Positions 129-63,815 of a DNA stretch of 64,000 bases are shown piece after piece. The stretch is from an uncultured bacterium (lineage in GTDB: Bacteria; Armatimonadota; Abditibacteriia; Abditibacteriales; Abditibacteriaceae): contig CAWJLW010000006.1 of NCBI GenBank assembly GCA_963843795.1, positions 1,302,001 through 1,366,000 on the forward strand, in the 5' to 3' direction. The position numbers were made by a program, and so were the translations under genes. A model generated the notes under the pieces. It was not told where the DNA came from. It did no database searches and saw nothing but the letters and a program-made list of their open reading frames with translations. The stretch's first letter is position 1; each line of letters opens with the position of its first letter.

Positions 129-797
129 ATGGCAGACGAACGCGAAGAAGGCATTAACATCATCGATAGTCGTGGTAGCGCGACTTCTACGAACGAAAAT
201 GCCGCTGAAACCAATGAAGAAACTTCCACTGAAACCTCTAACGGCCCCGGCTTGCAATTGATCGGCGGCGGCTCTGATGATTCCGGTGCTGATGCCGAAA
301 TGGTTGTAGGCGACGAAGGTGAAATGGGCGACGAGCCGGAGATGACGCCCGAACAACAGGAAGAATTGCGCGTGGCGATGGAAGAAGAGCAGTTCGCTTC
401 AATTCAAGAACGTATCGGTCGCGAACTGACTGATGAAGAAAAAGATCAGGTGCGCGAGCAGATGGAAGCGCAGGCACAGGCGCAAATCAATCTCGAAGTC
501 GCACCGATGTTGCTCGAAATGATGGTGCGTTTGCCGCAATACGCCGCAGTTCACTTGGGCCTAACCGCCAATCCTTATACGCAGCTTATCGCGCGCAACG
601 ACGAAAACGCGCGCATGGCAATTGACGCTTTCGGCGGCATGTATGATACGGTGAAATCGCACCTCGACAACAACAGTCGTCGCGAATTCGAGCGCGTGCT
701 GAACGATTTGCGCGTCAATTACACGCGCATCACCGGCCAGCCCATCGGCCCGGCTGGCGGCCCGTCGATCATCACTGGCCCGCGCATTATTCGCTAA
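129..797 (+). CDS. DUF1844-like protein with acidic N-terminal region
   Basis: AAAGGA RBS upstream. The C-terminal 'AAVHLGLTANPYTQ...ARMAIDAF...LNDLRVNY' matches the DUF1844 pattern from memory; the N-terminus is E/D-rich. Confidence 0.6.
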   Translation: MADEREEGINIIDSRGSATSTNENAAETNEETSTETSNGPGLQLIGGGSDDSGADAEMVVGDEGEMGDEPEMTPEQQEELRVAMEEEQFASIQERIGRELTDEEKDQVREQMEAQAQAQINLEVAPMLLEMMVRLPQYAAVHLGLTANPYTQLIARNDENARMAIDAFGGMYDTVKSHLDNNSRREFERVLNDLRVNYTRITGQPIGPAGGPSIITGPRIIR

Positions 798-845
798 ACA
801 ATCAAACCGGTTCTGCAAGTACTTGCAGAACCGGTTTGATTGTTT
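796..845. repeat. 50-bp perfect palindrome centred on GCAAGTACTTGC (terminator-like)
   Basis: AAACAATCAAACCGGTTCTGCAAGT|ACTTGCAGAACCGGTTTGATTGTTT, starting within the stop codon of the upstream gene and running into a T tract. Confidence 0.95.
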
Positions 846-863
846 TTGCCTTCCGCTAACAAT

Positions 864-1937
864 ATGAAGTGGATCATTCTCGAAGAAGCGCCGGTTGAAA
901 ATTTCTGGCCGCTTTCGCGCACGCGCCCGACGTGGGAATTGCGCTTTGGGGCGTGGTCGCCCTTGGAACGCGCGCGCATGGAAACGTGTCATCTCGCGTT
1001 GCGCGTGCGTCCCGAACTGGCTGCATACGCGCGTATTTCGACCGGCTTGCCGGTTAACGAAGATATTGAAGCGCAAAATATTAGTGGTGAAACACGTCAT
1101 GGTTTGCCGTATTTGTGGCCGTGGCAAATTCTCGCCAATTCAGACAAATTAATCGAAGCCGATTACGAGCAATGGATGGCCTCGCATTTCAACTGTCGCG
1201 AAGACATTGTGCTGGATGGCGTACATTTAATTGGCGATCGTGAGCAAATTTACATCGGTGCTGGTGCAACTGTACAAGCGGGCTGCGTGTTGGACGCCAG
1301 TCACGGGCCGATTATTGTTGGCGAACGCGCCGAAATTCAATGGTCGCACATTCAAGGGCCGGTTTTCATCGGTGCTGATTGCAACATTCACGGCGCGCGC
1401 GTGCGGCCGGGCACGAGCATCGGTCACGCTTGTAAAATCGGCGGCGAAATTTCCGCTTCGATTTTTCAAAGCCGCGTCAATAAAGCGCACGATGGTTTCG
1501 TCGGCCACAGTTGGGCCGGTCGCTGGGTGAATTTTGGCGCGCTGGCTACCACGAGCAACCTGAAGAATAATTATGGAAAGGTGCGCGTTTCGCAAACTTT
1601 GGAAACTTCTATCGATACCGAACAGCAATTTTTAGGGAGCTTGATTGGCGACCATACGAAAATCGGTATCGGGCAGATGCTGACGACCGGTAGCCACATC
1701 GGGCCGGGCTGCAATCTTTTTGGTGGTGGTGTCGCACCTAAATATGTGCCCGCGTTTTGTTGGGGTGGTGTCGAAGGTTGGGCCGAGCATCGTTTGGACG
1801 ATTGTTTGAAAACTGCGCGCGCTGTAACCGGACGGCGTTCGTTCGAGTTGCGCGTGCAAAGCGAAGCCGTGCTGCGCAATGTGTTCGCGCAAACGTCAAA
1901 AGAGCGCGCCGTGTTTTTGCAAATGCTGCGCGCCTGA
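864..1937 (+). CDS. GlmU-like putative sugar nucleotidyl/acyltransferase (hexapeptide repeat)
   Basis: N-terminal 'FWPLSRTRPTWELRFG', left-handed beta-helix repeats and 'NKAHDGFVGHSWAGRWVNFGA..SNLKNNYG'. ATG at 864 preferred over TTG at 840. Confidence 0.75.
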   Translation: MKWIILEEAPVENFWPLSRTRPTWELRFGAWSPLERARMETCHLALRVRPELAAYARISTGLPVNEDIEAQNISGETRHGLPYLWPWQILANSDKLIEADYEQWMASHFNCREDIVLDGVHLIGDREQIYIGAGATVQAGCVLDASHGPIIVGERAEIQWSHIQGPVFIGADCNIHGARVRPGTSIGHACKIGGEISASIFQSRVNKAHDGFVGHSWAGRWVNFGALATTSNLKNNYGKVRVSQTLETSIDTEQQFLGSLIGDHTKIGIGQMLTTGSHIGPGCNLFGGGVAPKYVPAFCWGGVEGWAEHRLDDCLKTARAVTGRRSFELRVQSEAVLRNVFAQTSKERAVFLQMLRA

Positions 1938-1960
1938 TTTGGATGGGAAATTAAAAACCA

Positions 1961-2401
1961 ATGCCGTTATTTGAATTTCGATGTTTAGATTGTGACAAGC
2001 GGTTTACATTTTTAAGTGGCGTTATCGCTGACAACAGCGAAGCGAAATGTCCGCGCTGCGATTCCGAAAAGTTGAAAAAGCTTATCTCGCGCGTTTCGCG
2101 CGGGCGCGATGACGATGCGCGTTTGGATGCGATGGCCGACAAGCTGGAAAACAGCGATTTCGATGATGAACGCGAAGTCAGAAAATTCGCGCGCGAAATG
2201 GGGCGCGAAATGGGCAGTGAAACTGGCGAAGATATGAGCGACGAAATCGAAGCCATGATCGAAGCCGAAGCACGAGGCGAAGACCTCGACGCGATGGGTG
2301 CGGGCGGAATGGGCGGCGCTGGCATGGGCGGAATGGGAATGGGCGGCATGGGCGCAGGCGGTTTCGGTGGCGGTTCGGGAGACGATGGAACGATTTATTA
2401 A
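1961..2401 (+). CDS. FmdB-family zinc-ribbon protein with Gly/Met-rich tail
   Basis: 'MPLFEFRCLDCDKRF...CPRCDSEKLKKLIS' signature; C-terminal GGMG repeats. Confidence 0.85.
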   Translation: MPLFEFRCLDCDKRFTFLSGVIADNSEAKCPRCDSEKLKKLISRVSRGRDDDARLDAMADKLENSDFDDEREVRKFAREMGREMGSETGEDMSDEIEAMIEAEARGEDLDAMGAGGMGGAGMGGMGMGGMGAGGFGGGSGDDGTIY

Positions 2402-3986
2402 GCCAGCGGCTCATCTCCGTGCCTTGTGCAAGTACTTGCACAAGGCTTTTCTGCTGTTATGCTTGGTAGCAAGTACTTGCCATGCCCAAAACGGTTTGGC
2501 GCTGCAAAATTTGCCAACTTTATCTAATAAAAATCCTTATCGCTGGTTCGCTTCGACCGATGCTAACCACAAAAACAATGATTTCGTGATGCTTCAACCT
2601 GGCGAAACGCGACGCGTGCCGCTAAGTGAAGGCAAGCTAGAGCGTTTGTGGAGCACGTCCGATCAGCCCGAAACGCTGCGTTTGCGACTGCAAAATGCTG
2701 GGCAAACGACAACGCTGTTAGAGAAAAATCGCGCTGTGCAGGGCAAGTGGAGCGACAAGGCTTACACACTTTACGATGCGCGCAATCTCAACCCCGACGC
2801 GACTTTAATTGCGAGCAATGCCAGCGCTAAACCCGCCAAATGGTTTTACCAGGCCAGTGTGCGGCCCAAGTTATTGCTCAGATTAGAGCCAGCAAAATTC
2901 ATTGGCGCGCCGAAAATTGTCAGCGTCGAGCGTTTGCTCAAAGATGGCGACAGCTTGGGCGCGTTCGATTTGTCGGGCGGCTTTAAATTCGGGCAAGTTG
3001 AAAAATTAGAAATTACACTCAAACCGGCGACATTGCAAACGTGGAACTTGGTTTTTCTGCGTGCTTTTGCGACTGGCGAGCAAGCGCGCGGGCCAGGTTC
3101 GCTAACCGAAATGCAGAACGCGCCAACTACGCCCGATCCGAAATTCGCTATCAACGCGCCGCTTTTGGCGCTCAGCGGACAATTTTTCGCGCTCAACTCG
3201 AAAAGCGATGCAGTTTCCAATTTCGATGGCAAAACGCTCACTATCAAATGGCCTTTGCCGTTCGACAAAGACCGCGAAGCGCCAGTGATTGATTTGTTCA
3301 ACACCAGCGCGGGTCGCGTGAATGTGAATATCAAAGCCACAGTGCGCCAATTGGATCAGTCACCCGCGATGATTTTTCATGCGGAATACGGCTCGGCCTT
3401 GCCAATAGCTAAACAACCGGTTTCGATTGCGAATTTCACCGGCAAAGGCGCATTAGTCGGGCTAGCGATGGCGACCAAACCAACGATTACTTCCAGTCGA
3501 CGCGCGTTTGCTTATCTCGAAGGAAACGAATTGATTCAGGCCGATGGCAAAATGTACGAAGGCACTGGCACCGAAGATTTCTTCAATTCAGCGTGGTATT
3601 TTCCCGAAAAACCGTTCACTGGCGATTACGGTGGCTTAACTTTCAAGAATGCGCTGCCGCCACAGGTTTCGATGTACCGCTGGCTCGTGCCCGATGCGAT
3701 TCCGTTTAGCCAAAATTTGCAATTCGATTTCGAACATGGCAACGGCAACAACGCGACCGACGTGGAATTTCGCTGGCTGGTGTGCTGGTATCAAGCACCG
3801 GGCGGCAGTTGGAAAGTTGTTGATGCGCTGCATGACGAGCCTGACGATGTTGAGCAAGGCCGCGCCGACGACGCGCGCCGCGAAATTGTATTTCGCCGCT
3901 ATATTCTGATTTCAACGGCAATCCTGCTCGGCATCGCAGCTTTAGTCGGGTTGTGGAGTGTGTTGAAAGGGCGGCGCGCGCAGTAA
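2385..3986 (+). CDS. DUF2961 (GH172-like) secreted, membrane-anchored protein
   Basis: 'EGNE...GTGTEDFFNSAWYF' and 'YRWLVPDAIPF...FEHG' motifs. ATG at 2385 follows GGAG; signal peptide and C-terminal TM helix present. Start is uncertain. Confidence 0.7.
   Translation: MERFIKPAAHLRALCKYLHKAFLLLCLVASTCHAQNGLALQNLPTLSNKNPYRWFASTDANHKNNDFVMLQPGETRRVPLSEGKLERLWSTSDQPETLRLRLQNAGQTTTLLEKNRAVQGKWSDKAYTLYDARNLNPDATLIASNASAKPAKWFYQASVRPKLLLRLEPAKFIGAPKIVSVERLLKDGDSLGAFDLSGGFKFGQVEKLEITLKPATLQTWNLVFLRAFATGEQARGPGSLTEMQNAPTTPDPKFAINAPLLALSGQFFALNSKSDAVSNFDGKTLTIKWPLPFDKDREAPVIDLFNTSAGRVNVNIKATVRQLDQSPAMIFHAEYGSALPIAKQPVSIANFTGKGALVGLAMATKPTITSSRRAFAYLEGNELIQADGKMYEGTGTEDFFNSAWYFPEKPFTGDYGGLTFKNALPPQVSMYRWLVPDAIPFSQNLQFDFEHGNGNNATDVEFRWLVCWYQAPGGSWKVVDALHDEPDDVEQGRADDARREIVFRRYILISTAILLGIAALVGLWSVLKGRRAQ
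2421..2446. repeat. 26-bp perfect palindrome with GCAAGTACTTGC core (second core at 2469-2480)
   Basis: GCCTTGTGCAAGTACTTGCACAAGGC followed by TTTT. Confidence 0.9.
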
Positions 3987-4026
3987 AACTTAACGATCCA
4001 GAAGTATTCGTATGAAGGAAATACAT

Positions 4027-6735
4027 ATGACCAGACAGGCAACTTTCAATCGGCAGTGGATTTTGATCAGCGCAATTTTGCTACTGCAAATCGTGCTCGT
4101 TTCCCTGTGCCGCGCGCAGAATCCTCTCAAGAAAACGTTGGATAACGGGCTGACGGTTTTGGTGCAGGAGAATCACGCTGCACCGGTAGTTTCGGTGCGT
4201 TTCTATGTGAAAACCGGTTCGATTTACGAAGGCAAATTTTTGGGCAGCGGCATTTCGCACTTGTTCGAACACACGCTATTCGAGGGCACGACAACGCGCA
4301 GCAAAATCCAAATCGACGACGATGTGCAGGCGATTGGAGGGCAGAGCAACGCTTATACTTCCAAGGATGTGACCTGTTATTACATCACGACGGCTTCGCC
4401 ATATTTCGAGCGCGCTTTGTCGTCCTTGAGTGATATGATGCAGAACGCGAATTTTCCCGATAATGAAGTCAAAACTCAGATTGGCGTCATTCACAACGAG
4501 ATGAATCTGGGCGACGATGATCCGGGCACCACGCTTTATAAAATATTCGATGAAACTGCTTTCGTGCGCCATTCGACGCGTTATCCGATTATCGGCTATC
4601 GCGAGAATTTCGACCGCTTGACGCGCGACGATATTATTTCTTATTACAAAGACCATTATCAGCCGGGCAACGTCGTTCTCGCAGTCGCGGGCGATGTCAA
4701 TACTGATATGGTTTTTAACTTGGCAACAAAATATCTGGGCGCGTGGCAGCGTCGCAACGCCAGCGACTTTACTCTGGCTTCGGAACCTTTGCAAACCGCA
4801 CCGCGCCGCTCGGTCGTGGAAAAAGATGTGCAACTGGCGTATTTAATGATCGGTTGGCACACAGTTCCTCTCCAAAACTCCGATTTGTATGCGCTCGATG
4901 TGCTGTCGCAAGTTCTGGGCGGCGGCGAAAGTTCACGTCTGGTGCGCTCGTTGCGCGAGCGCGATAGTCTGGTTTCCGACATCAGTTCCTATTCAGCGAC
5001 GCCCAATTACGATGCGGGCACGTTTGGGATTTCAGCAACTATGCCCGCCGAAAACTTGACCAAAGTCGAGAGTGCCATTTTTCAGCAAGTCGAAAACGTG
5101 ATTCGTCAGGGCGTGACGGCTGAAGAACTGGAGCGCGCTAAACGAGGCATTGAAACCGCGTTTATTTTCGGCAGCAGCGATGTGGAAAATCAGGCCGAGC
5201 AGATCGCCTACGACGAACTGGCGACCGGCGATCCGAGCTATTCGCGTCGGTATGTCGCGCGCATCAAAGACGTTACGGCTGCGCAGATTCAGGAAGTTGC
5301 TCGCAAGTACTTGCGGCCTGAAGGCACGACAACCGCGATCATTCGCCCACGTCTCGCAGCTGCCACGACCGTAGCCGTTGCACCAGTTCCGGCAGCGGGC
5401 GCACCGCAAATGTTCCGCTTGGCCAACGGAATGCGCGTGATTGTGCGCAACGATCCTTCCGCCGAGACTGTAGCTTTGGTCGCGATGGGCGTGGGCGGAA
5501 CGCGTTTAGAGCCGGCGGGCAAAGCCGGTGTGGCGAATTTGGCAACACAACTTTTGACGCGTGGCACGCCGGGACGCGATGCCGAAAGCGTGGCGACTTT
5601 AGTCGATACCTTGGGCGGAGATTTGACACCGCAAAGTGGCTACAATTCGTGGGGCATCAGTTCGCGCTGGCTGGTGCGCGACTGGCGGCGCGGTCTGGGT
5701 TTGCTCAGCGAAGCCGTCACCGAGCCAGCTTTTGCTGCCGATGAACTGGCGCGCGTGAAAGCGCAAACTATCGCGCAAATTCGCGCCCAAGATGACGATC
5801 CCAACGGCGCGGCAGCTTTAGCTTTGCGCGGGGCATTTTTCGGCGCGCACCCTTACGGACGTTCCAGTCTGGGCACCGAAGCCTCGCTGAACACAATTTC
5901 GCGCGATGATGTGGCGAATTATTGGAAGCGCATCGCCGATCCTTCTCGCACGGTGGTCGCAGTTTATGGAAACATCGAGCCGGAATTAGCGCGCGATGCC
6001 GTAGAGTTCGCGTTTAAAGATTGGAAAGCGAGCGGCACTTTGCCCGGCGCGCCCGCCGTGCCCGCAGCTTTGAACAGTTTCAAAGTCGTGGAAAGCACGA
6101 AACCCGGATTGGCGCAAACCGCGCTGTGGTTCGGCTATCCGTCGATTCGCATTGATGACCGCGACCGCTACGCGCTGGAAGTACTTGACGGCGCGCTTTC
6201 GGGCATTAATCTGCCCGGTGGACGTTTGCATCGTCGTCTGCGCGATAACGAACTGGTTTATGTAGTGCACGCTTACAATTCGCCCGGCGTCGATGCGGGA
6301 ATGTTTATTGTTTATGCGAACACCACGCGCGAAAATCGTGATAAAGTGCAATCGATTATTTTGGAAGAAATCAATCGAGTTCGCGACGAAGAAATTTCGC
6401 CCATGGAACTGGAAAGCGCCAAAAGCATGGCGATTGCCGCGCACGCCATCGATACGCAAAGCAATATCGCGCAGGCCAACAGTGCCGCCACCAATGAACT
6501 GGTCGGCATCGGTTACGGCGAAGACATCACGTTCGCCAACCGCATCAACGCCATCACCTTGGCCGATGTGAAAAACGTCGCGCAAAAATATCTGCGTCCC
6601 GATGCCGCTGCCCTGGCTGTCGTCGGCCCTCCCGTCGGACAAGACGCCGCTGTCGCACCAACCGATATCAAGCCAGAAGCGCCCAAAGCTGGACAAGACA
6701 CGCCGCCAGTGGCCGATAACATCCCTGCAAAGTAA
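4027..6735 (+). CDS. M16 family (pitrilysin/insulinase) zinc peptidase, secreted
   Basis: Inverted zinc motif HLFEH, 'GGQSNAYTSKD', two tandem M16 halves and a signal peptide. AAGGA RBS precedes the ATG at 4027. Confidence 0.92.
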   Translation: MTRQATFNRQWILISAILLLQIVLVSLCRAQNPLKKTLDNGLTVLVQENHAAPVVSVRFYVKTGSIYEGKFLGSGISHLFEHTLFEGTTTRSKIQIDDDVQAIGGQSNAYTSKDVTCYYITTASPYFERALSSLSDMMQNANFPDNEVKTQIGVIHNEMNLGDDDPGTTLYKIFDETAFVRHSTRYPIIGYRENFDRLTRDDIISYYKDHYQPGNVVLAVAGDVNTDMVFNLATKYLGAWQRRNASDFTLASEPLQTAPRRSVVEKDVQLAYLMIGWHTVPLQNSDLYALDVLSQVLGGGESSRLVRSLRERDSLVSDISSYSATPNYDAGTFGISATMPAENLTKVESAIFQQVENVIRQGVTAEELERAKRGIETAFIFGSSDVENQAEQIAYDELATGDPSYSRRYVARIKDVTAAQIQEVARKYLRPEGTTTAIIRPRLAAATTVAVAPVPAAGAPQMFRLANGMRVIVRNDPSAETVALVAMGVGGTRLEPAGKAGVANLATQLLTRGTPGRDAESVATLVDTLGGDLTPQSGYNSWGISSRWLVRDWRRGLGLLSEAVTEPAFAADELARVKAQTIAQIRAQDDDPNGAAALALRGAFFGAHPYGRSSLGTEASLNTISRDDVANYWKRIADPSRTVVAVYGNIEPELARDAVEFAFKDWKASGTLPGAPAVPAALNSFKVVESTKPGLAQTALWFGYPSIRIDDRDRYALEVLDGALSGINLPGGRLHRRLRDNELVYVVHAYNSPGVDAGMFIVYANTTRENRDKVQSIILEEINRVRDEEISPMELESAKSMAIAAHAIDTQSNIAQANSAATNELVGIGYGEDITFANRINAITLADVKNVAQKYLRPDAAALAVVGPPVGQDAAVAPTDIKPEAPKAGQDTPPVADNIPAK

Positions 6736-6759
6736 AAAACTTTCTATAAGCTCATTCAT

Positions 6760-6808
6760 AAAGAAAAAAGGCGTCCTACAAGTACTTGCAGGGCGCCTTT
6801 TTTTCTTT
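6760..6808. terminator. Bidirectional intrinsic terminator built on the palindrome (near-perfect)
   Basis: AAAGAAAAAAGGCGTCCTACAAGTACTTGCAGGGCGCCTTTTTTTCTTT between the convergent M16 and xerD genes. Confidence 0.85.
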
Positions 6809-6812
6809 GCAA

Positions 6813-7826
6813 TTAAGCGCGCGGATGAGCTTTGCGATAAGCGTCGCGCAAATGGCTGGTTTCCACATGCGTGTAAATTTGCGTGGTTGAAATATCGGCG
6901 TGGCCCAGTAACTCTTGAATCGCGCGCAAATCGGCGCCATTAGCGAGCAAATGAGTGGCAAAGCTATGACGCAAACTGTGCGGACTCACCCAATTGGGCA
7001 AACCGGCGCGTTCGGCGTGTTTCTTGACGATTTGTCCCAACAATTCGCGGCTCAAAGCGCGGCCCATGTCAGATAAAAAAACGATGTCGCTCACGCCGCG
7101 CCGCGCAAAGTTTCTGCGCGCCCGCGTGCCCTTGGCATCTTCCAATTCGTCTGCCGCTCCGCTGAGTTTGGGGCGCGCGAAGGCCAGATAATTATCCAGC
7201 GCTGCCCGCGCAACTCCTGCCAAAGGCACCATACGTTCTTTGCCGCCTTTGCCGCGGCAACGGAGGAAATTGCGCTCCAAATCGATATCGCTTAAACGCA
7301 AAGCACACAATTCTGCCGCGCGCAAACCCGAAGCGTAAAGCATTTCCAAGAGGGCTCTGTCGCGCACGCCGCGCGCATCGGCATTGCCGGGCGCTTCAAC
7401 TAAAGAACGCATTTGCTCGAACGATAAAATGTGTGGCAAGCGTCGTCCGGTGCGAAAACTGTCCAATCGCGAAGTCGGGTCGGGCCAGTTGTTTTCGCGC
7501 GTTAAAAACTTGTGCCATGAACGCAGCGCGGCCAATTTTCGCGCAATCGAAGCCTGAGCATACGTTTTATTATCGACCTGCGCGCTACTCAATGCGCGCA
7601 AATAAGCGGCGATGTGGTCGCTGTTAATCGCGTGTGGTGCGTTGATTTGCTGCTGTAAAAGCCAGCGCGCATACTGCTCCAAATCACGCCGGTAATTGGA
7701 AACTGTGTGAATTGAAACGCCGCGCTCGACGCGTAGCGCGTCGATAAACGTTTCGATTTCGCGTTCAAATTCGGCAGCGTTTTCAACGGTGAAATGATGC
7801 ATATAAATTCCTGGAATTGGAGACAC
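6813..7826 (-). CDS. xerD: Site-specific tyrosine recombinase XerD
   Basis: 'RDRALLEMLYASGLR', 'GKGGKERMVP' and 'HSLRHSFATHLLANGADLRAIQELLGHADISTTQIYTHV..AHPRA'. The true start may be 7802. Confidence 0.88.
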   Translation of the reverse strand: MSPIPGIYMHHFTVENAAEFEREIETFIDALRVERGVSIHTVSNYRRDLEQYARWLLQQQINAPHAINSDHIAAYLRALSSAQVDNKTYAQASIARKLAALRSWHKFLTRENNWPDPTSRLDSFRTGRRLPHILSFEQMRSLVEAPGNADARGVRDRALLEMLYASGLRAAELCALRLSDIDLERNFLRCRGKGGKERMVPLAGVARAALDNYLAFARPKLSGAADELEDAKGTRARRNFARRGVSDIVFLSDMGRALSRELLGQIVKKHAERAGLPNWVSPHSLRHSFATHLLANGADLRAIQELLGHADISTTQIYTHVETSHLRDAYRKAHPRA

Positions 7827-7861
7827 AGTTTAACCAGCGCGATTGTTGATAAATTAAAAGT

Positions 7862-8323
7862 ATGACTAATGAACCCAAAAAACACGCGCAGCCCGTTTGG
7901 CGCGCACGCGCCAATTATCGTCTGGCGATGAAAGTGGACGATTCCGATCACGAAGAAGAACTGTGGGTCAACAAGCACAGCGATGAATTATTTGAAATTT
8001 GCTGTATTCCTTTTTTTATTTACGACGTGAATCTGGGCGATATCATTAAAATTGTGCCGCACCAAAATAAAAATCTCGTGCTCGGCGTACAAACTCCCAG
8101 CAATCATCACACTTTCCGTATCTGGTTTCAAACCAAATCGGTCGATGCGCGTGAGCGCGTTTTAGAAGCCTTGAAAGAGCAAAATTGTGACTTTGAAAAA
8201 TTCGACGATAATCTAATGTCTGTCGATGCGCCCGACGATCAAACCGCCAATGCTTTGGTGCGTTGGATGGAAAGTTCGCGCGCGCGTTTAGGCTTTGATT
8301 ACGAAACTGGTCGCACGGAATAA
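7862..8323 (+). CDS. DUF4265-like protein
   Basis: 'EELWV...IPFFIYDVNLGDII...PSNHHTFRI' resembles DUF4265. Confidence 0.65.
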   Translation: MTNEPKKHAQPVWRARANYRLAMKVDDSDHEEELWVNKHSDELFEICCIPFFIYDVNLGDIIKIVPHQNKNLVLGVQTPSNHHTFRIWFQTKSVDARERVLEALKEQNCDFEKFDDNLMSVDAPDDQTANALVRWMESSRARLGFDYETGRTE

Positions 8324-8329
8324 TAGACC

Positions 8330-9106: not shown

Positions 9107-9568
9107 TTTCGAAATATCGTCGCCGGTTACGCGCATTGTCGTCCATTCATCCATTTCTTGCGCGCCCAAACTTTTGTAAAACGCAATCGAAGGCGCGTTC
9201 CAATCCAGCACGCTCCATTCGATGCGGCCGCATTCATTTTCCTGTGCGATATGCGCCAATGCGCGCAAAATCTGGCGACCAATACCGAGATTGCGATGAG
9301 CTTGCTGCACATAAATATCTTCGACATACAAACCCGGCCGCGCCAGAAAAGTGGAAAAGTTGTAAAAATACAACGCGTAACCGACGGGAATTCCATCGCG
9401 CCGTGCGACGAGGGCGTGGCAGCGGATTTCTTCAAACAAGTAGCGATGCAAAAGTTCTGCGCTGGCCAAAACATCATCGCTCATTTTTTCATAATCAGCC
9501 AATTCACGGATGAAACTTAAAATCACCGGCACGTCTGCGGGCGTCGCATCGACAATCGAGATATTCAT
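9095..9568 (-). CDS. GNAT family N-acetyltransferase (diamine acetyltransferase-like)
   Basis: 'IRELADYEK...YNFSTFLARPGLYVEDIYV...GRIEWSVLDWNAPSIAFYKSLGA'. Start reassigned to ATG 9568. Confidence 0.9.
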   Translation of the reverse strand: MNISIVDATPADVPVILSFIRELADYEKMSDDVLASAELLHRYLFEEIRCHALVARRDGIPVGYALYFYNFSTFLARPGLYVEDIYVQQAHRNLGIGRQILRALAHIAQENECGRIEWSVLDWNAPSIAFYKSLGAQEMDEWTTMRVTGDDISKLAN

Positions 9569-9587
9569 ATCGCACAGTTTAAAATGT

Positions 9588-53873: not shown

Positions 53874-53889
53874 CTGCAAGTACTTGCAG
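53874..53889. repeat. Palindrome copy between convergent genes
   Basis: CTGCAAGTACTTGCAG. Confidence 0.9.
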
Positions 53890-53893
53890 CCTA

Positions 53894-55882: not shown

Positions 55883-55896
55883 TTTGGCTCCTGTTG

Positions 55897-55964
55897 TGTT
55901 GCAAGTACTTGCAACATATATTCAGACAAAAAATGGCCGCTGCAAGTACTTGCAGCGGCCATTT
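55897..55964. repeat. Two palindrome copies (55897-55916; 34-bp perfect at 55931-55964)
   Basis: TGTTGCAAGTACTTGCAACA and AAATGGCCGCTGCAAGTACTTGCAGCGGCCATTT. Confidence 0.93.
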
Positions 55965-55977
55965 CGATGGGGAATTT

Positions 55978-58788
55978 CTATTCGGCTTTGGTAATTTCCA
56001 GTCCGCTAATTTTGGCGTTCTGATCGCGACTGCCAGAAGCGGCGCTAACGCGAATGATAATTTTGCCGTCTTGGGCGGCAACGTTATTAAATTCTTTGAC
56101 CAGCGCTTTGTTTTGTCCGGCTTCACGGGCGATATCGAGATTATTCAAAACGCGCTTGCCGTTAATATCTACATTTTCGATACGCTCGCCAACTTGCGCC
56201 TCGAAAATCTCCGCGAAGTGCAGACGAATGTTGTAACGACCATCTTGCGGAACGGGGAAAGCGAACGAGTAATCCGATCCGTAAAGTTCGCTTTGATAAA
56301 CTTTTTCGGGCGCGGCACCCGGCGCGCTGACATCAATGCGATTGTTATTTGCATTAGTTGCGCCTTCCATCATGTTGGGGTCGGAAACCCAGTTGCCAAT
56401 CGGATCGCTTGTCCCAGCGGCGACGCGAATGGGCAATTGCAAAATTATCGGCTTGTTGTTGGAAGGTTCTGGTAGAGCAGCGTAGCGATAATCGCTCGGC
56501 ATGCCTGAAGGCGGACGATTGGCTGGAGCGCTGCCCCACGTTACGTTGGGTTTCGATCCCATCGTCAGGCGCAATTGACCGCCGTTAGCAATTTCGTCTT
56601 GCGTAATCCACGAGCGATTCAACCTCTGGCCGTTCAGCATCGCCGATTGAATGTAAAGGTTTTGTGGTGAATTGTTGGCTGCGATGACGGTGAACTTTTT
56701 GCCGCCGTATTTCTTTTTGTCCAAATTCAACGTCGCACGGCTCAAGCGCGGGCTACCGATGGAATAAATGCCGCCGACCGGATTGGTCGGATAAATTCCC
56801 ATCGCGCTGAACACATACCAGGCCGACATCTGGCCGCAATCGTTGTTGCCCGATTGACCGTCCGGCTGGTCGCTATACAGCGTGTCCATAATCTGGCGCA
56901 CGCGCATCTGAGTGCGCCACGGCGCGCCCGCGTAAGCATATAAATACGCGACGTGATGAACCGGTTCGTTGCCGTGCGCATACTGACCAATCAGGCCGGT
57001 GATGTCGGGAATGTTGGCAATGACATCGTCTTTTTCGTTGAACAGAGTTTCCAGTTTGCCGATGAACTCCGCGTCGCCGCCCATAATTTTCACCAGTCCG
57101 GGCGAATCTTGCATGGCCGTCCATGAATACTGCCACGCGTTGGCTTCGGTGTAATCGGCCCACACTAATTGCTTCGGATTGAACGGGCGACGCCACGAGC
57201 CATCGGCTTTGCGTCCGCGCATGAAACCGGTCGTTGCGTCGAACACGTTACGATAATTGGTCGCGCGCTTCAGGAACATTTCGGCGTCTTCGGTGTGGCC
57301 CAAAGCTTTGGCCAATTGCGCGATGCACCAATCGTCATAGGCGAATTCCAAAGTGCGCGAAACCGATTGTTTCTGGCCCGCGTTGGCCGAAACCACGTAG
57401 CCTAATTTCTGGTATTCGCCCTGACCGTTGCGATCTTGCATCGCGGTCGTTTTCAGGGCTTGATAAAGCGCTTCGGCGTCGAAACCGCGAAAACCTTTAA
57501 GATAGGCATCGGCGATAACCGGAGCCGAATGGTAACCGATCATCGTGCCGGTTTCGTTGCCCCACAACGGCCAGACCGGCATTTCTTTGCGGTCGCGCTG
57601 CTGATAATGCCACAGCATCGACTGCACCATATCGGGCACGCGATTCGGTTGCACGAGAGTCAAAAGCGGATGCTCGGCGCGGAAAGTGTCCCACAGCGAA
57701 AGCGTGGTGTAATTGTCCATGCCTGCACCTTTGTGGTTTTTTTTGTCTAAGCCGCGATAAGTTTTATCGACATCATTGAACAATACGGGCGCGAGCATCG
57801 AAAGATACAGGTTCGAATAAAAGGTGCGGCGCACTTTCGGGTCGTCAGTTTCAACGCTGACTGCACTCAGTGCGTCGCTCCATTGAGCGGCAGCTTTGGC
57901 GCGCACACCATCGAAATTCCAGTCGGGCAATTCGGCTTTCAGGTTTTTGCGTGCACCTTCGACGCTCGTACCCGAGATGCCAACTCTGACACCAATGATT
58001 TCATCAGCAATCGTTTTGTAGCTCACGAACGCTTTGACCGCTTTGCCGGTCGCGTCTTGGGCATCAGCCGCCAAACGCACGCCGTCTCTCTCGATGCCAT
58101 ACGAAGCGAAAGGTTTGGAGAATTCCATCACGAAATAAATATCGCGACGACCGCCCCAACCGTTCGAAGTGCGTGTGCCGCTGATGGTGCGATTGTTCTC
58201 GAATTTCAGAGAACTTTCGATGACCGAATTGCCGACGCCGTGCTCCAAATCAAGAATGATGTGGGCCGCGTCCGAAGCGGGGAAAGTGTATTTGTGGAAG
58301 CCGGCTCGCGCGGTGGCGGTCATTTCGGCCAGCACTTTGGGGTCTTGCAAATATGCGCGATAATAGCCCGGTTTGGCAATTTCCTGCGCGTGCGAAAAGC
58401 GCGATGCGTAACCGGCTTCGCCTTTGAGCGGATCGCCCACATTAAGCTGAATCGCGCCGACGGTCGGCATCAAAAGCACGTCGCCCAAGCCACCAACGCC
58501 TGTTCCCGAAAGATGCGTGTGACTGAAACCCTGAATCACCGAATCGGAATAATGATAGCCCGACGAACCGTCCCAGCCTTGCAGCGGCGTGTCGGGGCTG
58601 AGCTGCACCATGCCAAATGGTACGGTCGCGCCCGGATAAGTGTGACCATGCTCGGCAGTGCCGACGAACGGATTGACGCTTTCAAACGGCGTTGGCGCGG
58701 CGGCCCATAGAGGCTGCGGCGCAAAAGCGGCGGTAGCGCACAATAGCGAAACACCGGGAAGAAGAAACGATTTGACAGACAATTTCAT
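55978..58788 (-). CDS. GH92 alpha-mannosidase with C-terminal malectin domain
   Basis: 'HGHTYPGATVPFGMVQLSPDT', 'FSHTHLSGTG', 'SLWDTFR', 'HGNEP' and 'GNNDCGQMSAWY'; malectin tail. Confidence 0.93.
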   Translation of the reverse strand: MKLSVKSFLLPGVSLLCATAAFAPQPLWAAAPTPFESVNPFVGTAEHGHTYPGATVPFGMVQLSPDTPLQGWDGSSGYHYSDSVIQGFSHTHLSGTGVGGLGDVLLMPTVGAIQLNVGDPLKGEAGYASRFSHAQEIAKPGYYRAYLQDPKVLAEMTATARAGFHKYTFPASDAAHIILDLEHGVGNSVIESSLKFENNRTISGTRTSNGWGGRRDIYFVMEFSKPFASYGIERDGVRLAADAQDATGKAVKAFVSYKTIADEIIGVRVGISGTSVEGARKNLKAELPDWNFDGVRAKAAAQWSDALSAVSVETDDPKVRRTFYSNLYLSMLAPVLFNDVDKTYRGLDKKNHKGAGMDNYTTLSLWDTFRAEHPLLTLVQPNRVPDMVQSMLWHYQQRDRKEMPVWPLWGNETGTMIGYHSAPVIADAYLKGFRGFDAEALYQALKTTAMQDRNGQGEYQKLGYVVSANAGQKQSVSRTLEFAYDDWCIAQLAKALGHTEDAEMFLKRATNYRNVFDATTGFMRGRKADGSWRRPFNPKQLVWADYTEANAWQYSWTAMQDSPGLVKIMGGDAEFIGKLETLFNEKDDVIANIPDITGLIGQYAHGNEPVHHVAYLYAYAGAPWRTQMRVRQIMDTLYSDQPDGQSGNNDCGQMSAWYVFSAMGIYPTNPVGGIYSIGSPRLSRATLNLDKKKYGGKKFTVIAANNSPQNLYIQSAMLNGQRLNRSWITQDEIANGGQLRLTMGSKPNVTWGSAPANRPPSGMPSDYRYAALPEPSNNKPIILQLPIRVAAGTSDPIGNWVSDPNMMEGATNANNNRIDVSAPGAAPEKVYQSELYGSDYSFAFPVPQDGRYNIRLHFAEIFEAQVGERIENVDINGKRVLNNLDIAREAGQNKALVKEFNNVAAQDGKIIIRVSAASGSRDQNAKISGLEITKAE

Positions 58789-58831
58789 AAAGATGGCTCC
58801 ATTTGCGGCACGATTCGACTGGGGTTACGAC

Positions 58832-58867
58832 ACAATTTGCTCTGCAAGTACTTGCAGGGCAAATTGT
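58832..58867. repeat. 36-bp near-perfect palindrome upstream of GH92
   Basis: ACAATTTGCTCTGCAAGTACTTGCAGGGCAAATTGT. Confidence 0.9.
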
Positions 58868-59001
58868 TGAGGGATTTTGGGGAGCTGAGTCGATTTTAAA
58901 CGCTTTTTACAGCCTCATTCACCGGTGTTGCCCGAAATTTTCCACAAGGTTAAATCTGGAATTTTTAACTGGCAAGTATTTGCATTCCGCAATTACTAAT
59001 A

Positions 59002-59048
59002 ACCCGCAGAGTAAGTGCAAAGACTTGTCGTTGCACTTACTTGCGGGT
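59002..59048 (-). terminator. Stem-loop after the ABC importer operon
   Basis: ACCCGCAGAGTAAGTGCAA-loop-TTGCACTTACTTGCGGGT. Confidence 0.7.
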
Positions 59049-59056
59049 GTAGAAAA

Positions 59057-60082
59057 TTAGTTGGCCAGCGCGCTATCTTTTTCCGCGTCAGCTTTTTTGT
59101 AAAGCGTGGTGGGAATCAGAATTTGCGCGGGCAACTCTTCGCCAGCCATATATTTCACGATGGAATCGACGGTTTTCTTGCCAATTTCAGTGGGCGATTG
59201 AACGGGATCGGCATAAATTTTTCCGTTTTTAATGGCTTGTTTACCTTCTTCGTTGCCGTCGAAACCGACGATCATGACTTTACCGGATTTGCCCGCTTTT
59301 TCCAGTGCTGCGACCGCGCCCAGCGCCGAAGGGTCGTTGATGCCGAAGAAGCCGTTCAAATCGGGGTGAGCTTGCAAAATGTCTTCGGCAGCCTTGAAAG
59401 ATTTATCTTTTTCGCCGCCGCCGGGCAATTTGGCTACGATCGTGATTTTGCCAGCGCCCTTGGCGTTGTGCTCATTGATGACCTGCTCGAAACCTTTGGT
59501 GCGCAGAATCACCGATTCGGCTTCGGGATGGTCGATGATGGCGACTTTGCCTTTACCTCCCAGCGCTTCAATCATCGCTTCGCCAGCTAATTTGCCACCG
59601 CTGAGGTTATCAGTCGCAATGTGCGAAACCACTTTGGCGTCTTTGGAAAGCGAAGCAATGTCGGCAGTGAACACTGGAATGCCCGCATCGTTAGCGGCTT
59701 TGATGGCTTCACCGACCGATTTGGAATCGGCGGGGTTGAGAATAATTGCCGAAACTTTTCTCACGATGAAATCATTGACCTGATCTTTTTGTTTGGCCGG
59801 ATCGTTATCGGCAGAAACGATTACTGCGTCCATGTTGTTGGCTTTGGCTTCTTCGCCAATCGCCTTGCCCATGTCGCTGAAAAACGGATTGGTCGAAGTC
59901 AACAGCGACACGCCAATTGTGCCTTTGGATGCGCCGCCGGTCGTCGTCGCGCCGCCTGCGCTGGTTCCACTGCCGTCGGCAGTATTGGTGGCATTCTGGC
60001 CGCCGTTACAACCGGCGAAAATAAACAGAGCAGTCGAAGCGACGGTCGAAAGAAGCAAACGGCGAGTGAAGTAACGTTTCAT
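59057..60082 (-). CDS. Sugar ABC transporter substrate-binding lipoprotein (RbsB-like)
   Basis: Lipobox 'FAGC', 'TNPFF', 'ATDN..GG', 'ND..ALGA' and 'VGFDG'. Confidence 0.92.
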   Translation of the reverse strand: MKRYFTRRLLLSTVASTALFIFAGCNGGQNATNTADGSGTSAGGATTTGGASKGTIGVSLLTSTNPFFSDMGKAIGEEAKANNMDAVIVSADNDPAKQKDQVNDFIVRKVSAIILNPADSKSVGEAIKAANDAGIPVFTADIASLSKDAKVVSHIATDNLSGGKLAGEAMIEALGGKGKVAIIDHPEAESVILRTKGFEQVINEHNAKGAGKITIVAKLPGGGEKDKSFKAAEDILQAHPDLNGFFGINDPSALGAVAALEKAGKSGKVMIVGFDGNEEGKQAIKNGKIYADPVQSPTEIGKKTVDSIVKYMAGEELPAQILIPTTLYKKADAEKDSALAN

Positions 60083-60118
60083 AAATTAATTCCTTTACTG
60101 GTTTTGAATAGGGTGAAT

Positions 60119-61534
60119 CTAAGACGATGGGCCGGGTGTCGCAGCGGGGGCAGCAGGCGGTGGATCGGTCGTAATTTCGCGGCGATTGTGGCCAGTCAGC
60201 CAGCGCCAATCGCGATGTTTGAGCATATCGAGCAGGACAGCGCCCAGAATTACTACGCCCAAAACTACGCGCTGTGTGTAACTTTCAACGCCAGTCAGGT
60301 TCATGCCGTTTTGAATGACGGCGATAATGAAAGCGCCAATCAAAGTGCCGAAAATTTTGCCCTGCCCGCCGCTCAAACTGGTTCCGCCCACGACAACCGC
60401 CGCGATGACATAAAGTTCGTAAGCAAGTCCGTAGGTTGGTGCGCCACTTTTTAACTGTGAGGCCAGCACCACGCCGCCAAAGCCCGCCATCGCGCCTGAA
60501 ACTGTGTAAACGAACAGTAAAATTGGGGCCACGCGTACACCAGAAAGCCGCGCTGCTTCAGGGTTGCCGCCGACTGCGTAAATGTAACGGCCCAGCTTGG
60601 TGCGGCTCATCAAGATGTGCGCCACGATATAAATCAGTGCCATCAGCCAAACCGCGTTCGGGACGCCACCCAAGCTGGTGCCGCGCCCTAGAATTGTGAA
60701 GGATTCGGGAATTTCATAAATTGAAGTTCCCTTCGACAAAATAAACGCGATGCCGCTGGCAATTTGCATTACGCCCAGCGTGGCAATAAAAGGTGGCAGA
60801 TTGAACGCCGTAATCGCCGCGCCCGATAATAAACCGATGCCGCCGCACATCGCGATTCCAGCGAGACTGGCGAGAATCATCGTGCCGCTGCTGGCGTCAG
60901 TTCCGCCCGCATTGCGAATCAGGATTGTTGTGACAACTGCGGACAGCGCAATCAAACTACCTACAGATAAATCGATGCCGCCGGTTACAATTACCATCGT
61001 CATACCGACCGCGATGACCGCGACGACGACGATTTGGTTGGCGATATTCAATAAGTTCGCTCGCTGCAAAAATAAAGGCCAACGATAGCTTTCGGCGTAG
61101 AAAAGCTTGGCATTGGAAAGCGTCGGATATTTTTGGCCGATTTCCTTCAAAACCGTCCAGTCCGCACACGCGGGCGTAGTGGCGATGGCGGCGATTGGAA
61201 TATTCTGCGCGGCGGCTTTTTCCAAACCTTCGCGCGCCGCACGCGGGTCGCCAAGTACTTGGGACGCGATGGTGTAGCCAGAAGCCTCCAGCCGTCGCTT
61301 TAATCCCTGTGCGAACGCCTTATCGCCATCGCTGTTGCGCGCGACAATCATGACAGCTGCGCCCTTTTCGGCAGACTTTTCGATGCGCGCGGCGACAGTT
61401 TGCGCGGCGACATCGCCTTCGGGGTTCTGCACTTGTAAAGTCGCCCATGAATAATAAACGCACAGCAGCAACAAAACAATCGCCATGCCGTAACTGGTGA
61501 ACAAACCGCGCATTCCCGCGCGCAACCGACTCAC
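60119..61534 (-). CDS. Sugar ABC transporter permease (RbsC-like) with a soluble insertion
   Basis: 'GGIDLSVGS', 'PPFIATLG', 'GGNPEAARLSG' and 'IAAVVVGGTSLSGG'. Confidence 0.92.
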   Translation of the reverse strand: MSRLRAGMRGLFTSYGMAIVLLLLCVYYSWATLQVQNPEGDVAAQTVAARIEKSAEKGAAVMIVARNSDGDKAFAQGLKRRLEASGYTIASQVLGDPRAAREGLEKAAAQNIPIAAIATTPACADWTVLKEIGQKYPTLSNAKLFYAESYRWPLFLQRANLLNIANQIVVVAVIAVGMTMVIVTGGIDLSVGSLIALSAVVTTILIRNAGGTDASSGTMILASLAGIAMCGGIGLLSGAAITAFNLPPFIATLGVMQIASGIAFILSKGTSIYEIPESFTILGRGTSLGGVPNAVWLMALIYIVAHILMSRTKLGRYIYAVGGNPEAARLSGVRVAPILLFVYTVSGAMAGFGGVVLASQLKSGAPTYGLAYELYVIAAVVVGGTSLSGGQGKIFGTLIGAFIIAVIQNGMNLTGVESYTQRVVLGVVILGAVLLDMLKHRDWRWLTGHNRREITTDPPPAAPAATPGPSS

Positions 61535-63084
61535 TGCGAAACTCCCATTGCCATTGTCTCCGTTTGCTGTGCTTCGGCTTGATTTTCCACCGTGAAGCTC
61601 AAAATTTGTTCTTGCGTGGCGTGCGCCACGTCTTCGATTTCACCCACGATACGACCTTCGTGCATCACCAAAATACGATCGCTCATGCCAAGTACCTCGG
61701 GCAGTTCGGACGAAATCATCAGAATTGATTTCCCCTGCGCTGCCAACTCGTTCATCAATAAGTAAATTTCGTATTTCGCGCCGACATCAATGCCGCGCGT
61801 TGGCTCATCGATGATGATGATATCGGAATTGGTTTCCAGCCATTTGGCTAAAACAACTTTTTGCTGATTGCCGCCCGAAAGATTGCGCGCCAACTGTTCC
61901 TGGTGCGGCACTTTGATTTGCAAACTTTCGATGTAACCCGCGAACGCTTTGCGTTCTTGTGCGCGCTGCACGAAACCCAATTTCGACAGCAATCCTAAAT
62001 TCGGCAAGCCAAAATTTTCGCGCACCGACAAGCCCAGCACCAAACCCTGTGATTTGCGATCTTCAGTCAACAGGCAAATGCCGTTTTGAATCGCATCGAC
62101 CGGCGAATTGATTTTCAGTTCGCGCCCATCGAGCGTAATTGTGCCGCTTTCGCGCTTGTCGGCACCGAAAAGCAAGCGCGCCACTTCAGTCCGTCCCGCA
62201 CCGACCAAACCAGTCAGCCCAAGTACTTCGCCGTGCCGCAAATCGAAACTCACTCCGCGCACGCTGTTGCCACGCCACAAATTGCGCACCTGTAAGCGCG
62301 TTTGACCCACTTCCGTGTCGCGTTTGGGAAATTCGCTTTCCAGTTTGCGCCCGACCATCAGTTCGATAATGCGTTCGCGCGACAAATCGGCAACGTTTTC
62401 GGTCGTGATATATTCTCCATCGCGCATAATCGTGGCGCGGTCGCACATCGCGAAAATCTCGTCCAAGCGATGGCTGACGTAAAGAATCCCCAAACCCTGC
62501 GCCTGCAAATCGCGAATAATGGCAAACAATTTCTCGACTTCACGCCCGCTGAGCGCTGCGGTTGGCTCGTCCATCACCACGATGCGAGCTTTGCGCGCCA
62601 GCGCTTTGGCGATTTCCACGATTTGCTGCTGCGCAACTGATAATTGGCTGCACAAAATTTCGGGGTCGATTTCAATGTCCAAGCGCTTGAATAATTCCAG
62701 CGCTTCGCGCCGTTCCTCGTTGGGTGAGAGAAATCCGCCTCCGCGCTCTTGGCCCAGAAAAATATTTTCGCGCGCCGAAAGCGTCGGGACGAGATTAAAT
62801 TCTTGATAAATCACCGCGACGCCCAATTGCTGCGCATCCAGAGGCGAAGAAATAGCGGCGATTTTACCATCAATGGCAATCGTGCCCGCTTCAGGATGAT
62901 GCGCGCCCGAAAGTACTTTGATCATCGTACTTTTGCCCGCGCCGTTTTCGCCCAACAGAGCATGAACTTCGCCCGCGCGTAGTTCGAGTTGTCCGCGTTT
63001 AATGGCGCGGACGCCGGGAAACGATTTTTCGATGCCTTGCATCGAAAGCAGCGGCAATGGTGCGGAAGAAAATTCAGAATTCAT
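61531..63084 (-). CDS. Sugar ABC transporter ATP-binding protein (RbsA-like)
   Basis: 'GENGAGKST', two ABC halves, 'LSGGNQQK' and 'DEPTRGIDVGAK'. Confidence 0.95.
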   Translation of the reverse strand: MNSEFSSAPLPLLSMQGIEKSFPGVRAIKRGQLELRAGEVHALLGENGAGKSTMIKVLSGAHHPEAGTIAIDGKIAAISSPLDAQQLGVAVIYQEFNLVPTLSARENIFLGQERGGGFLSPNEERREALELFKRLDIEIDPEILCSQLSVAQQQIVEIAKALARKARIVVMDEPTAALSGREVEKLFAIIRDLQAQGLGILYVSHRLDEIFAMCDRATIMRDGEYITTENVADLSRERIIELMVGRKLESEFPKRDTEVGQTRLQVRNLWRGNSVRGVSFDLRHGEVLGLTGLVGAGRTEVARLLFGADKRESGTITLDGRELKINSPVDAIQNGICLLTEDRKSQGLVLGLSVRENFGLPNLGLLSKLGFVQRAQERKAFAGYIESLQIKVPHQEQLARNLSGGNQQKVVLAKWLETNSDIIIIDEPTRGIDVGAKYEIYLLMNELAAQGKSILMISSELPEVLGMSDRILVMHEGRIVGEIEDVAHATQEQILSFTVENQAEAQQTETMAMGVSQ

Positions 63085-63587
63085 ACTGCGTTGCAAAGTG
63101 TGAAAGCGATTATTTTGCGGCTTCGAAAATCAAGTCATCCAAACCGCACAACGACTTCAGACCGCTCGATTTCTCGTTGACGCCAACGATTTTCACACGC
63201 AAAGTGCAATGGTTACCGTGCGGCACAAAAATCTCAGATCAATCGGTTCAGATTGCCGCCCAACTGACGCATGCCATCGAAATCCAAGGGAATTATATGA
63301 CCATTTATGGGAAAGCGAAGTTTAACGTAATCGGACTCTTGAGTTGCGTGCAAAACTAGTCAATACGTGTAGTTTGAATCGGGTATTACTAATTCTACGC
63401 CATACTGTTAAGTCCTGCGATAAATGGTAAATGTGCCAAGGCATGAATTGCATTTGAATCGGGTTTCGATGAAAGAATGAGTTGGATGCAAAATCCCTCT
63501 CCACGTGTTTGCCGAAACGTGCTTGCCTAAACAAATCAGAACTGAGAGGATAAAAGTAATTTTATATTAGGAATTGGAGGCACCACA

Positions 63588-63619
63588 AAAAGCTCCCGCC
63601 AGCAGCGGCGGGAGCTTTT
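63588..63619 (-). terminator. Conventional intrinsic terminator of the tRNA
   Basis: AAAAGCTCCCGCC-AGCAGC-GGCGGGAGCTTTT. Confidence 0.85.
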
Positions 63620-63658
63620 GAGTACCTTACTCGACTTTATGTCCTCAAGGTTGATGAG

Positions 63659-63732
63659 TAGCCCGTAGGGGATTCGAACCCCTGATCTTCAGAATGAGAA
63701 TCTGATGTCCTGGGCCTCTAGACGAACGGGCC
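63659..63732 (-). tRNA. tRNA-Glu (anticodon CTC), CCA not encoded
   Basis: GGCCCGT/ACGGGCT acceptor stem, anticodon arm TCAGA-TTCTCAT-TCTGA and T-arm AGGGGTTCGAATCCCCT. Confidence 0.95.
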
Positions 63733-63781
63733 ATCTGCGCTAAAAGCACCAGAAAATTTAACAAATTCCTCTGCAGTGCGC

Positions 63782-63815
63782 AAGTTCTATGTGCAAGTAC
63801 TTGCACATAGAACTT
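63782..63815. repeat. 34-bp perfect palindrome just after rho
   Basis: AAGTTCTATGTGCAAGT|ACTTGCACATAGAACTT. Confidence 0.95.

Follow-up and report, generated by a model that had tools for sequence, protein, structure and literature searches.

In the available excerpts of the literature, several repeat systems come close to the one described here. The DNA uptake sequences (DUS) of Neisseriaceae and the uptake signal sequences (USS) of Pasteurellaceae are short words that occur in thousands of copies, are frame-biased within genes, form dialects and have been co-opted by terminators (PMC1852404, PMC3630211, bioRxiv 10.1101/2025.10.24.684340). HIP1 and its variants in cyanobacteria are hyper-abundant perfect palindromes with palindromic extensions and lineage variants, at a density similar to that of the word described below (~600 per Mb; PMC4390886). 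Repetitive extragenic palindromic (REP) elements of the GTAG and CGTC families are high-copy extragenic palindromes of 20-40 bp near gene ends (PMC3733652), NTS repeats are tied to transformation and read on single strands by the sequence-specific Ssn nucleases (PMC11893778), and template-switch correction of quasi-palindromes is associated with an excess of long perfect inverted repeats in noncoding DNA (PMC5941160). Our analysis of a 64,000-nt stretch from an uncultured bacterium of the family Abditibacteriaceae, phylum Armatimonadota (hereafter the window; GenBank assembly GCA_963843795.1, contig CAWJLW010000006.1, forward-strand positions 1,302,001 to 1,366,000), revealed a word with likenesses to all of these, the self-complementary 12-mer GCAAGTACTTGC, here referred to as the tag. 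We propose, at a probability of about 0.65, that hairpins centred on this tag constitute intrinsic terminators with a palindromic self tag as their tip and that ordinary template switching has extended a minority of them.

The nine perfect palindromes listed in the initial annotation of the window were all recovered exactly where it had placed them (9/9; Table 1). Their common centre, AGT/ACT, was confirmed as well; the core they actually share is longer and corresponds to the tag. Eight of the nine start no more than 31 nt past a stop codon or overlap it, as had been claimed for most, and the palindrome at 47693 lies 77 nt past one. The description of these hairpins as loop-less holds for the DNA but not for the RNA, since each of the 12 folds obtained over the strands tried (12/12) consisted of a stem with a 4-nt GUAC loop, at -21 to -46 kcal/mol. 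The absence of a spacer in the DNA is therefore no obstacle to reading these sites as terminators, and even in perfect palindromes the four to six central bases are described as forming a loop (PMC7999016, in excerpt).

The window holds 34 copies of the tag, while none occurred in 100 shuffles. Across the whole 4.30-Mb assembly (G000, with contigs C3, C4 and C6), we counted 2,567 copies against 0.25 predicted from base content, or about one per 1.7 kb; the words one mismatch away have 0-68 copies each. By our own gene calls, 1,807 copies are intergenic and 755 are coding, the latter with a bias in frame (498/143/114). Coding tags were gained by substitution, as gaps were seen at 5/46 tag sites and 26/285 control sites (the tag-free set used in this comparison excluded L002, L003, L006, L008, L009 and L158), and in tagged relatives three of six orthologous coding sites hold the tag too. 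Bare tags in genes show the same GC-then-T flank bias as the palindromes, in weaker form. Six tag-poor segments contained insertion sequence (IS) elements, a type I restriction-modification system, a type IV secretion system, an integrase with a replication initiator, tail-sheath genes and glycosyltransferase clusters; the tag is scarce in acquired DNA. One tag-free region, L204 (G000:C3:1-20000), encodes tail sheath, tube, baseplate, Pvc16-like and AAA proteins and resembles a contractile injection system. A scan of viral contigs gave six loci with a single match each and no tag-rich phage.

Closer inspection of the spacing between neighbouring tags revealed peaks at 20-21, 30, 39-41, 51 and 62 bp, that is, a period of 10.4-10.5 bp that was matched in 0/2,000 permutations; pairs phased in this way occur in the window at 2428/2469, 30121/30151 and 55901/55942. 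Furthermore, a 13-bp form with one additional central base is present in 66 copies genome-wide. The helical phasing together with the 13-bp form suggests a dimeric protein acting on duplex DNA. There are also 13 exact tandem double tags, whose hairpins are centred between the two copies. A related observation is a 50-bp perfect palindrome composed of three tag-like units at G000:C6:218236-218285 (L210), within a 515-aa open reading frame (ORF) that has no Pfam match. Elsewhere, four perfect palindromes of 28-58 bp lie within 200 bp of AT-rich DNA (L211:1128-1331; G000:C4, ~10.1-10.3 kb); they are centred on a different word, GTATATATAC, and possibly represent a mobile-element origin or an operator array. 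A possible likeness of the tag centre to an SlmA binding site was dismissed, as that word occurs once in this genome and the tags are spread evenly along C6, with no gap at the terminus.

The lengths to which symmetry extends around the tag are bimodal, at 12-18 bp and 30-40 bp, with 499 copies reaching at least 28 bp and the longest 78. These 499 long palindromes comprise 430 distinct whole sequences and 264 distinct 8-nt arms, of which 202 are single; the commonest arm occurs in 53/499, and one 34-bp palindrome was seen 14 times. The initial annotation had called most arms mutually unrelated. There is indeed no single repeat, but the palindromes at 20710 and 23534 have an identical inner 36 bp, and a loose genome-wide consensus (A-G-S-G-C-G-C-T-T-T-T) is discernible, so that the arms are semi-private. 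The coupling between the two arms of a site greatly exceeds the level obtained by shuffling arms among sites, and it depends on gene context: palindromes of at least 28 bp were found at 184/294 convergent tag sites (shuffle, 7.4 +/- 2.6), 234/887 tandem sites near a stop (2.5), 51/363 tandem sites farther from a stop (0.4), 20/263 divergent sites (0.2) and 5/608 deep-coding sites (0.1).

In support of termination, a T-rich tract flanked 404/497 long palindromes on at least one side and 267 on both. In an annotation-free search, the tag or a variant of it was present in 588 of 804 T-tailed, terminator-like hairpins (exact tag at the centre, 440; variant, 148; motif-free, 216). Of 309 well-supported convergent spacers, 137 contained a hairpin on the exact tag, 33 one on a variant and 34 one that was motif-free, while 105 contained none. 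The core hairpins folded at a median of -19.2 kcal/mol (n=413), and on the sense strand G.U mismatches outnumbered A.C mismatches by 46:20 when the three hairpin classes were pooled (p=0.002). Collectively, position, U-tracts, the G.U bias, and the orthologous gene ends and inverted pairs described below give good support to the suggestion of the initial annotation that terminators recruit the motif as they do DUS and USS. Judged by their sequence, the tag hairpins are likely to be intrinsic terminators, ordinary-looking as RNA. A terminator scan was not used, as it gave 30 sites against 33 in shuffles and listed 0/4 of the long palindromes in 20000-39999; it probably missed them since the hairpin stem continues through the T-tract.

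We also compared related genomes. For a protein of the window, the closest named matches come from Abditibacteriaceae, phylum Armatimonadota. The word AAGTACTT has 2,965 copies here and 2,725 in the congener G001 but 0-59 in 26 other genomes of the order, and a search of 400 further genomes of the phylum gave no more than 19 copies of CAAGTACTTG in any of them. Dialects distinguish the lineages: G001 uses a CAAAGTACTTTG-type word, G006 uses GTACGGTCGA, and metagenome relatives have the looser CAAGTACTTG. In 126 kb of G001, its own dialect centres 10/11 perfect palindromes of at least 20 bp. G006 alone has an asymmetric GTAC-containing word, with 2,981 copies (regions L112-L123) and no enrichment in five other genomes of its genus. 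This word forms 863 overlapping head-to-head pairs; within 240 kb, 47/51 pairs are intergenic, many of them T-tailed, and 22 unpaired copies lie in genes, 18 of them in one frame class. The build of the hairpin thus follows from the symmetry of the word, and the paired arrangement of G006 is that of Neisseria (PMC3630211, in excerpt). A further word, CAGCCACG, is enriched in regions of G007 (L140-L143) and G016 (L150-L151) and in L010. Some of its copies form inverted pairs with 10-25-nt spacers that have no T-tail and are REP-like more than terminator-like, and at one homologous coding position L150 has CAGCCACG and G000 the tag.

A metagenome scan returned 36 loci, of which five were judged unrelated (L171, L172, L177, L189, L195) and two were duplicates (L163, L174); the remaining 29 distinct loci, from relatives, have AAGTACTT at a density of about one per kb, with hairpins up to 64 bp long. 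Three of the apparently unrelated genomes (L172, L177, L195) each have one T-tailed hairpin on the same 12-mer, with no tag enrichment. In a comparison of L162 with L183 (88% identity), gene-sized insertions had their edges at or beside tags. At orthologous gene ends, 13 genes have a perfect tag hairpin in a relative. Eight of these genes also end in one in this genome, in one case on a variant core, compared with 629/2,887 gene ends overall (p=0.002). Concerted changes of both arms, which the initial annotation had proposed to look for among strains, were seen between relatives: in 12 hand-picked ortholog pairs aligned on the core with no gaps, 49 of 84 stem positions were the same, 28 had changed on both sides and still paired, and 7 did not pair, although slippage may inflate the 28. 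Duplicated tag sites within the genome were uninformative about changes in the arms, with only three paralogous pairs.

These comparisons bear on two alternatives. The hairpins could be a terminator cassette resembling REP elements or miniature inverted-repeat transposable elements (MITEs), whose modal arm was spread by transposition and whose arms both diverged later. The commonest arm and the palindrome seen 14 times would fit such a history, as would the single 140-aa Y1_Tnp ORF of the genome and the likeness of the G006 paired element to a repeated unit. Most tags, however, are bare, coding copies arise with no insertion, single tags in genes show the same flank bias, most arms are single, and the hairpins keep their place at the orthologous gene ends of distant relatives with different arms, all of which makes a cassette quite improbable. 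An artefact of assembly or polishing might be suspected, as the evidence for the palindromes comes from assembled contigs, a poly-A run of 289 nt at G000:C6:529518 is itself likely to be an assembly artefact, and a sulfatase gene in the window (45680-47615) appears to be split across two overlapping frames by a frameshift or sequencing error. The separately assembled relatives nevertheless have the same hairpins with other arms, up to 64 bp long, and the dependence on gene context is strict, so we regard an artefact as extremely improbable. The contigs of run X1 are neutral in this respect: they match the window at >=99% in short pieces, none of which bridges a palindrome, and their 36-nt pieces at 20719-20754 have flanks that differ from those of the window.

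We then compared tag-centred, variant-centred and motif-free hairpins for symmetry beyond the stem. Terminated RNA ends about 7-9 nt past the stem. Perfect symmetry 11-26 nt beyond the stem base was present in 39/440 tag hairpins, 13/148 variant hairpins and 5/216 motif-free hairpins, and at least four extra mirrored bases beyond a fully mirrored T-run were present in 58/249, 23/82 and 10/81, respectively, while shuffles stayed below 2%. The symmetric tracts end abruptly, with pairing resumed past the break in 1/80, and there is no bias to G.U at the pair where the symmetry first breaks (22:28). Tracts that reach past the end of the terminated RNA and then stop abruptly are the pattern expected of arm-to-arm copying of DNA, and template switching is the mechanism invoked for perfect inverted repeats (PMC5941160). 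The initial annotation had envisaged a process, centred on the motif, that copies one flank onto the other. Copying found support at the level of DNA, but its centring on the motif did not, because variant cores extend equally often and motif-free hairpins extend too, at a lower rate; a motif-specific nick is possible but not required. Likewise, the expectation that arms would be more symmetric on the tag than in motif-free terminators was borne out for the far extensions but not clearly for the stem proper, where outer-stem mismatches in gene-end hairpins with an A-tract numbered 21/265 on the tag and 15/107 in motif-free hairpins (p=0.08). A raw contrast of 42/440 with 92/216 (p=1e-21) was discarded as biased, because a core by definition contains no mismatches and the motif-free set includes chance hairpins. 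It is likely, from these sequence patterns, that selection on the RNA stem keeps the arms complementary and that copying between the arms in the DNA adds to this.

The premise that such palindromes would be unstable proved weak. SbcCD damage generally needs palindromes much longer than the 28-78 bp found here. Moreover, the genome encodes an sbcD that passes the family cut-off, and the gene after it, of 1,057 aa and uninterrupted, has SbcC-type motifs; both lie at G000:C6:2199185-2206812 (L089) downstream of an ATPase gene with HerA-like motifs and a 375-aa gene, in the same order as in a relative (L190). The check on sbcCD proposed in the initial annotation thus returned present, intact genes, and loss of sbcCD was discarded as an explanation for the palindromes. 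A search for methyltransferases of the N6/N4 type gave a single orphan candidate (PF01555, L152:1483-2253), with full-length matches in 20/27 family genomes, tagged or not, so that its presence does not track the tag. GTAC outside the tag reaches 0.59 of its expected count in this genome. Most of the relatives sampled are depleted in it as well, and several members of the family avoid it strongly, with as little as 0.02 of the expected count.

We propose the following course of events. With a density near one per 1.7 kb, the tag comes into genes through substitutions, is rare in acquired DNA and has GC-then-T flanks. Some protein would read it on duplex DNA, with neighbouring copies spaced in helical turns, and its role is likely to lie in DNA uptake or chromosome organisation. 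As the tag is its own reverse complement, a single copy would suffice for a 4-bp RNA stem with a GUAC loop, and its favoured flanks already resemble a stem and a U-tract, so gene ends in need of a terminator would retain it at their apex. An asymmetric word would have to be present twice, as in G006. The spacer-less centre may fold back easily during replication and occasionally allow one arm to be copied onto the other, which would produce matched arms at once, along with perfect tracts past the U-tract. Selection would then retain the symmetric products at gene ends and purge them from genes.

Several observations weigh against this reading. Far extensions are ~4 times commoner on the tag than off it (p=0.0013). 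Loop size might account for the excess, as extension among motif-free hairpins leans to short loops (8/42 vs 2/39, p=0.09), but this test is underpowered. One case speaks for copying between arms, but not unambiguously. In four homologues of a small TubC_N-like gene (L175, L182, L185, L197), at 80-89% identity, the tag lies in frame. The two arms match each other within L175 and within L197 but differ between these homologues at three of four positions, and L185 combines the 5' arm of one of them with the 3' arm of the other. This single case fits whole-arm copying as well as recombination or a chimera at the tag. Both findings would be expected if a tag-specific enzyme nicked the centre and primed fold-back synthesis, so that the tag wrote its own symmetric flanks and the terminators were the survivors. 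The same can be said of the divergent tags of at least 28 bp, where terminators are not expected, of the 13 tandem double tags and of the deep-coding tags symmetric over all five flank positions (9 vs 3.0 expected, p=0.002). However, several of these fully symmetric sites sit at predicted gene ends, an excess of comparably small size is seen at control 10-bp palindromes within genes (12 vs 6.4), and average flank pairing at the 608 deep-coding tags stays at shuffle level. Imperfect cores also extend equally often, and the two GIY-YIG matches of the genome lie in open frames of 450-672 aa and are not small Ssn-type genes. We consider a nicking enzyme of this kind unlikely. The same holds for its boldest form, in which the tag, as the first such palindromic self-DNA signal beyond cyanobacteria and Proteobacteria, would write its host's terminators: a dimeric, phased reader would nick or open the GTAC centre, fold-back synthesis would copy a flank, and selection would keep the gene-end products, leaving three quarters of the terminators tag-written; this is an improbable scenario.

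Other points concern the predicted termination itself. A U-tract is absent from both sides in 93/497 long palindromes, that of rho included; hairpins between tandem genes are almost strand-symmetric (T content 4.56 vs 4.26), which exceeds the need of one-way termination; and the G.U bias is weak in tag hairpins alone (13:5, p=0.10; looser selection 47:32, p=0.11). The hairpins might instead act mainly at the level of DNA, as structures such as cruciforms or as protein sites such as nucleoid anchors, or else as 3'-protecting RNA stems, with termination incidental in a genome that has rho. The missing U-tracts, the strand symmetry and the helical phasing would agree with such a role; the strong bias to convergent spacers and to positions no more than 60 nt from stops, and a build that is the same as in the T-tailed hairpins of tag-free relatives, would not, and we judge it to be distinctly unlikely. 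Further points on the same side are that five of the 13 orthologous gene ends have no perfect hairpin (three imperfect, two without any) and that our gene calls are a rough set (3,449 genes, 86% coding). The genome has comEC, dprA and a comEA-like gene, but comEC is present in 27/27 genomes of the family, so the occurrence of the tag does not follow that of competence. The analysis identified no reader protein, and candidates for ComP/ComN-type receptors were not searched.

The features of the window are collected in Table 1. The imperfect hairpin at 6760..6810 has a counterpart at the orthologous gene end of a relative, which is a perfect tag hairpin with different arms. In an Rfam scan, only a tRNA matched.

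Table 1. Tag copies and tag-centred hairpins in the window
Position	Strand	Feature	Remarks
815..63804	.	34 exact 12-bp tag copies, GCAAGTACTTGC	Window count
796..845	+	50-bp tag-centred palindrome, overlaps stop of ORF 129-797; predicted terminator	Symmetric 11 nt beyond stem
2421..2446	.	26-bp tag-centred palindrome, absent from the initial list	Second tag 41 bp off, a helical spacing
6760..6810	.	Imperfect hairpin with one-mismatch tag; convergent M16 peptidase and Xer recombinase genes	Fold, gene calls
11654..11665	.	Bare tag within recQ, reads QVLA	No insertion relative to homologues
20710..20761	+	52-bp tag-centred palindrome, 8 nt past ABC-transporter stop	Modal arm; symmetric 13 nt beyond stem base
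23534..23569	.	36-bp modal-arm palindrome; PAS-domain gene convergent with M3 oligopeptidase gene	Predicted bidirectional terminator
34985..35022	.	38-bp palindrome; convergent rpoC and hydrolase genes	Predicted bidirectional terminator
35986..36013	-	28-bp palindrome, 31 nt past minus-strand stop	Minus-strand U-tract
40672..40707	+	36-bp palindrome, 4 nt past prepilin-type gene	U-tract not clear; may be a 3'-protecting hairpin
47693..47722	+	30-bp palindrome, 77 nt past sulfatase stop	Position relative to gene calls
55931..55964	-	34-bp palindrome, 13 nt past GH92 gene stop	Minus-strand U-tract
63782..63815	-	34-bp palindrome, 7 nt past rho stop and upstream of tRNA-Glu	U-tract missing from the rho strand

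Among the papers listed by our literature search, none dealt with the word itself or with palindromic tags at the tips of terminators; subscription journals and supplements were outside its reach. If our reading is right, terminators would have co-opted a genome-wide self tag not only in Neisseriaceae and Pasteurellaceae but also in Armatimonadota, and the symmetry of the tag would set the build of the terminator, a palindromic word giving one copy at the tip and an asymmetric word a head-to-head pair. The helical phasing would, in addition, argue for a sequence-specific DNA-binding protein. Given close strains, one fixed centre in hundreds of hairpins, with variant and motif-free hairpins as controls, would make the share of template switching measurable. 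In this the system differs from the quasi-palindromes of template-switch correction (PMC5941160), as its hundreds of sites with one centre provide matched exact, variant and motif-free classes within one genome.

Among the other described systems, REP elements differ in that their arms belong to one family sequence; here the centre is conserved and not the foot, and bare copies lie in genes with no insertion. In contrast to the NTS repeats and their Ssn nucleases, which we compared by description, no small GIY-YIG gene was found here. The HIP words share the palindromy of the tag, but the tag is 12 bp long, non-cyanobacterial, 70% intergenic and located at terminator tips; the available text of PMC4390886 has no match for "terminat" or "intergenic". 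DUS and USS terminators offer a further comparison. About 55% of high-confidence Neisseria terminators are reported, in the excerpts available, to carry a DUS, and by a different method 440/804 hairpins carry the exact tag at their centre here. DUS and USS are asymmetric words whose stem comes from an inverted pair, whereas the word described here is palindromic, so that a single copy forms the tip and leaves the arms free; its copies are helically phased, and it is known from sequence alone, in a phylum other than that of the two families. Collectively, the tag hairpins would work like DUS and USS terminators, yet they lack one of the features that define those, an asymmetric word in a paired stem.

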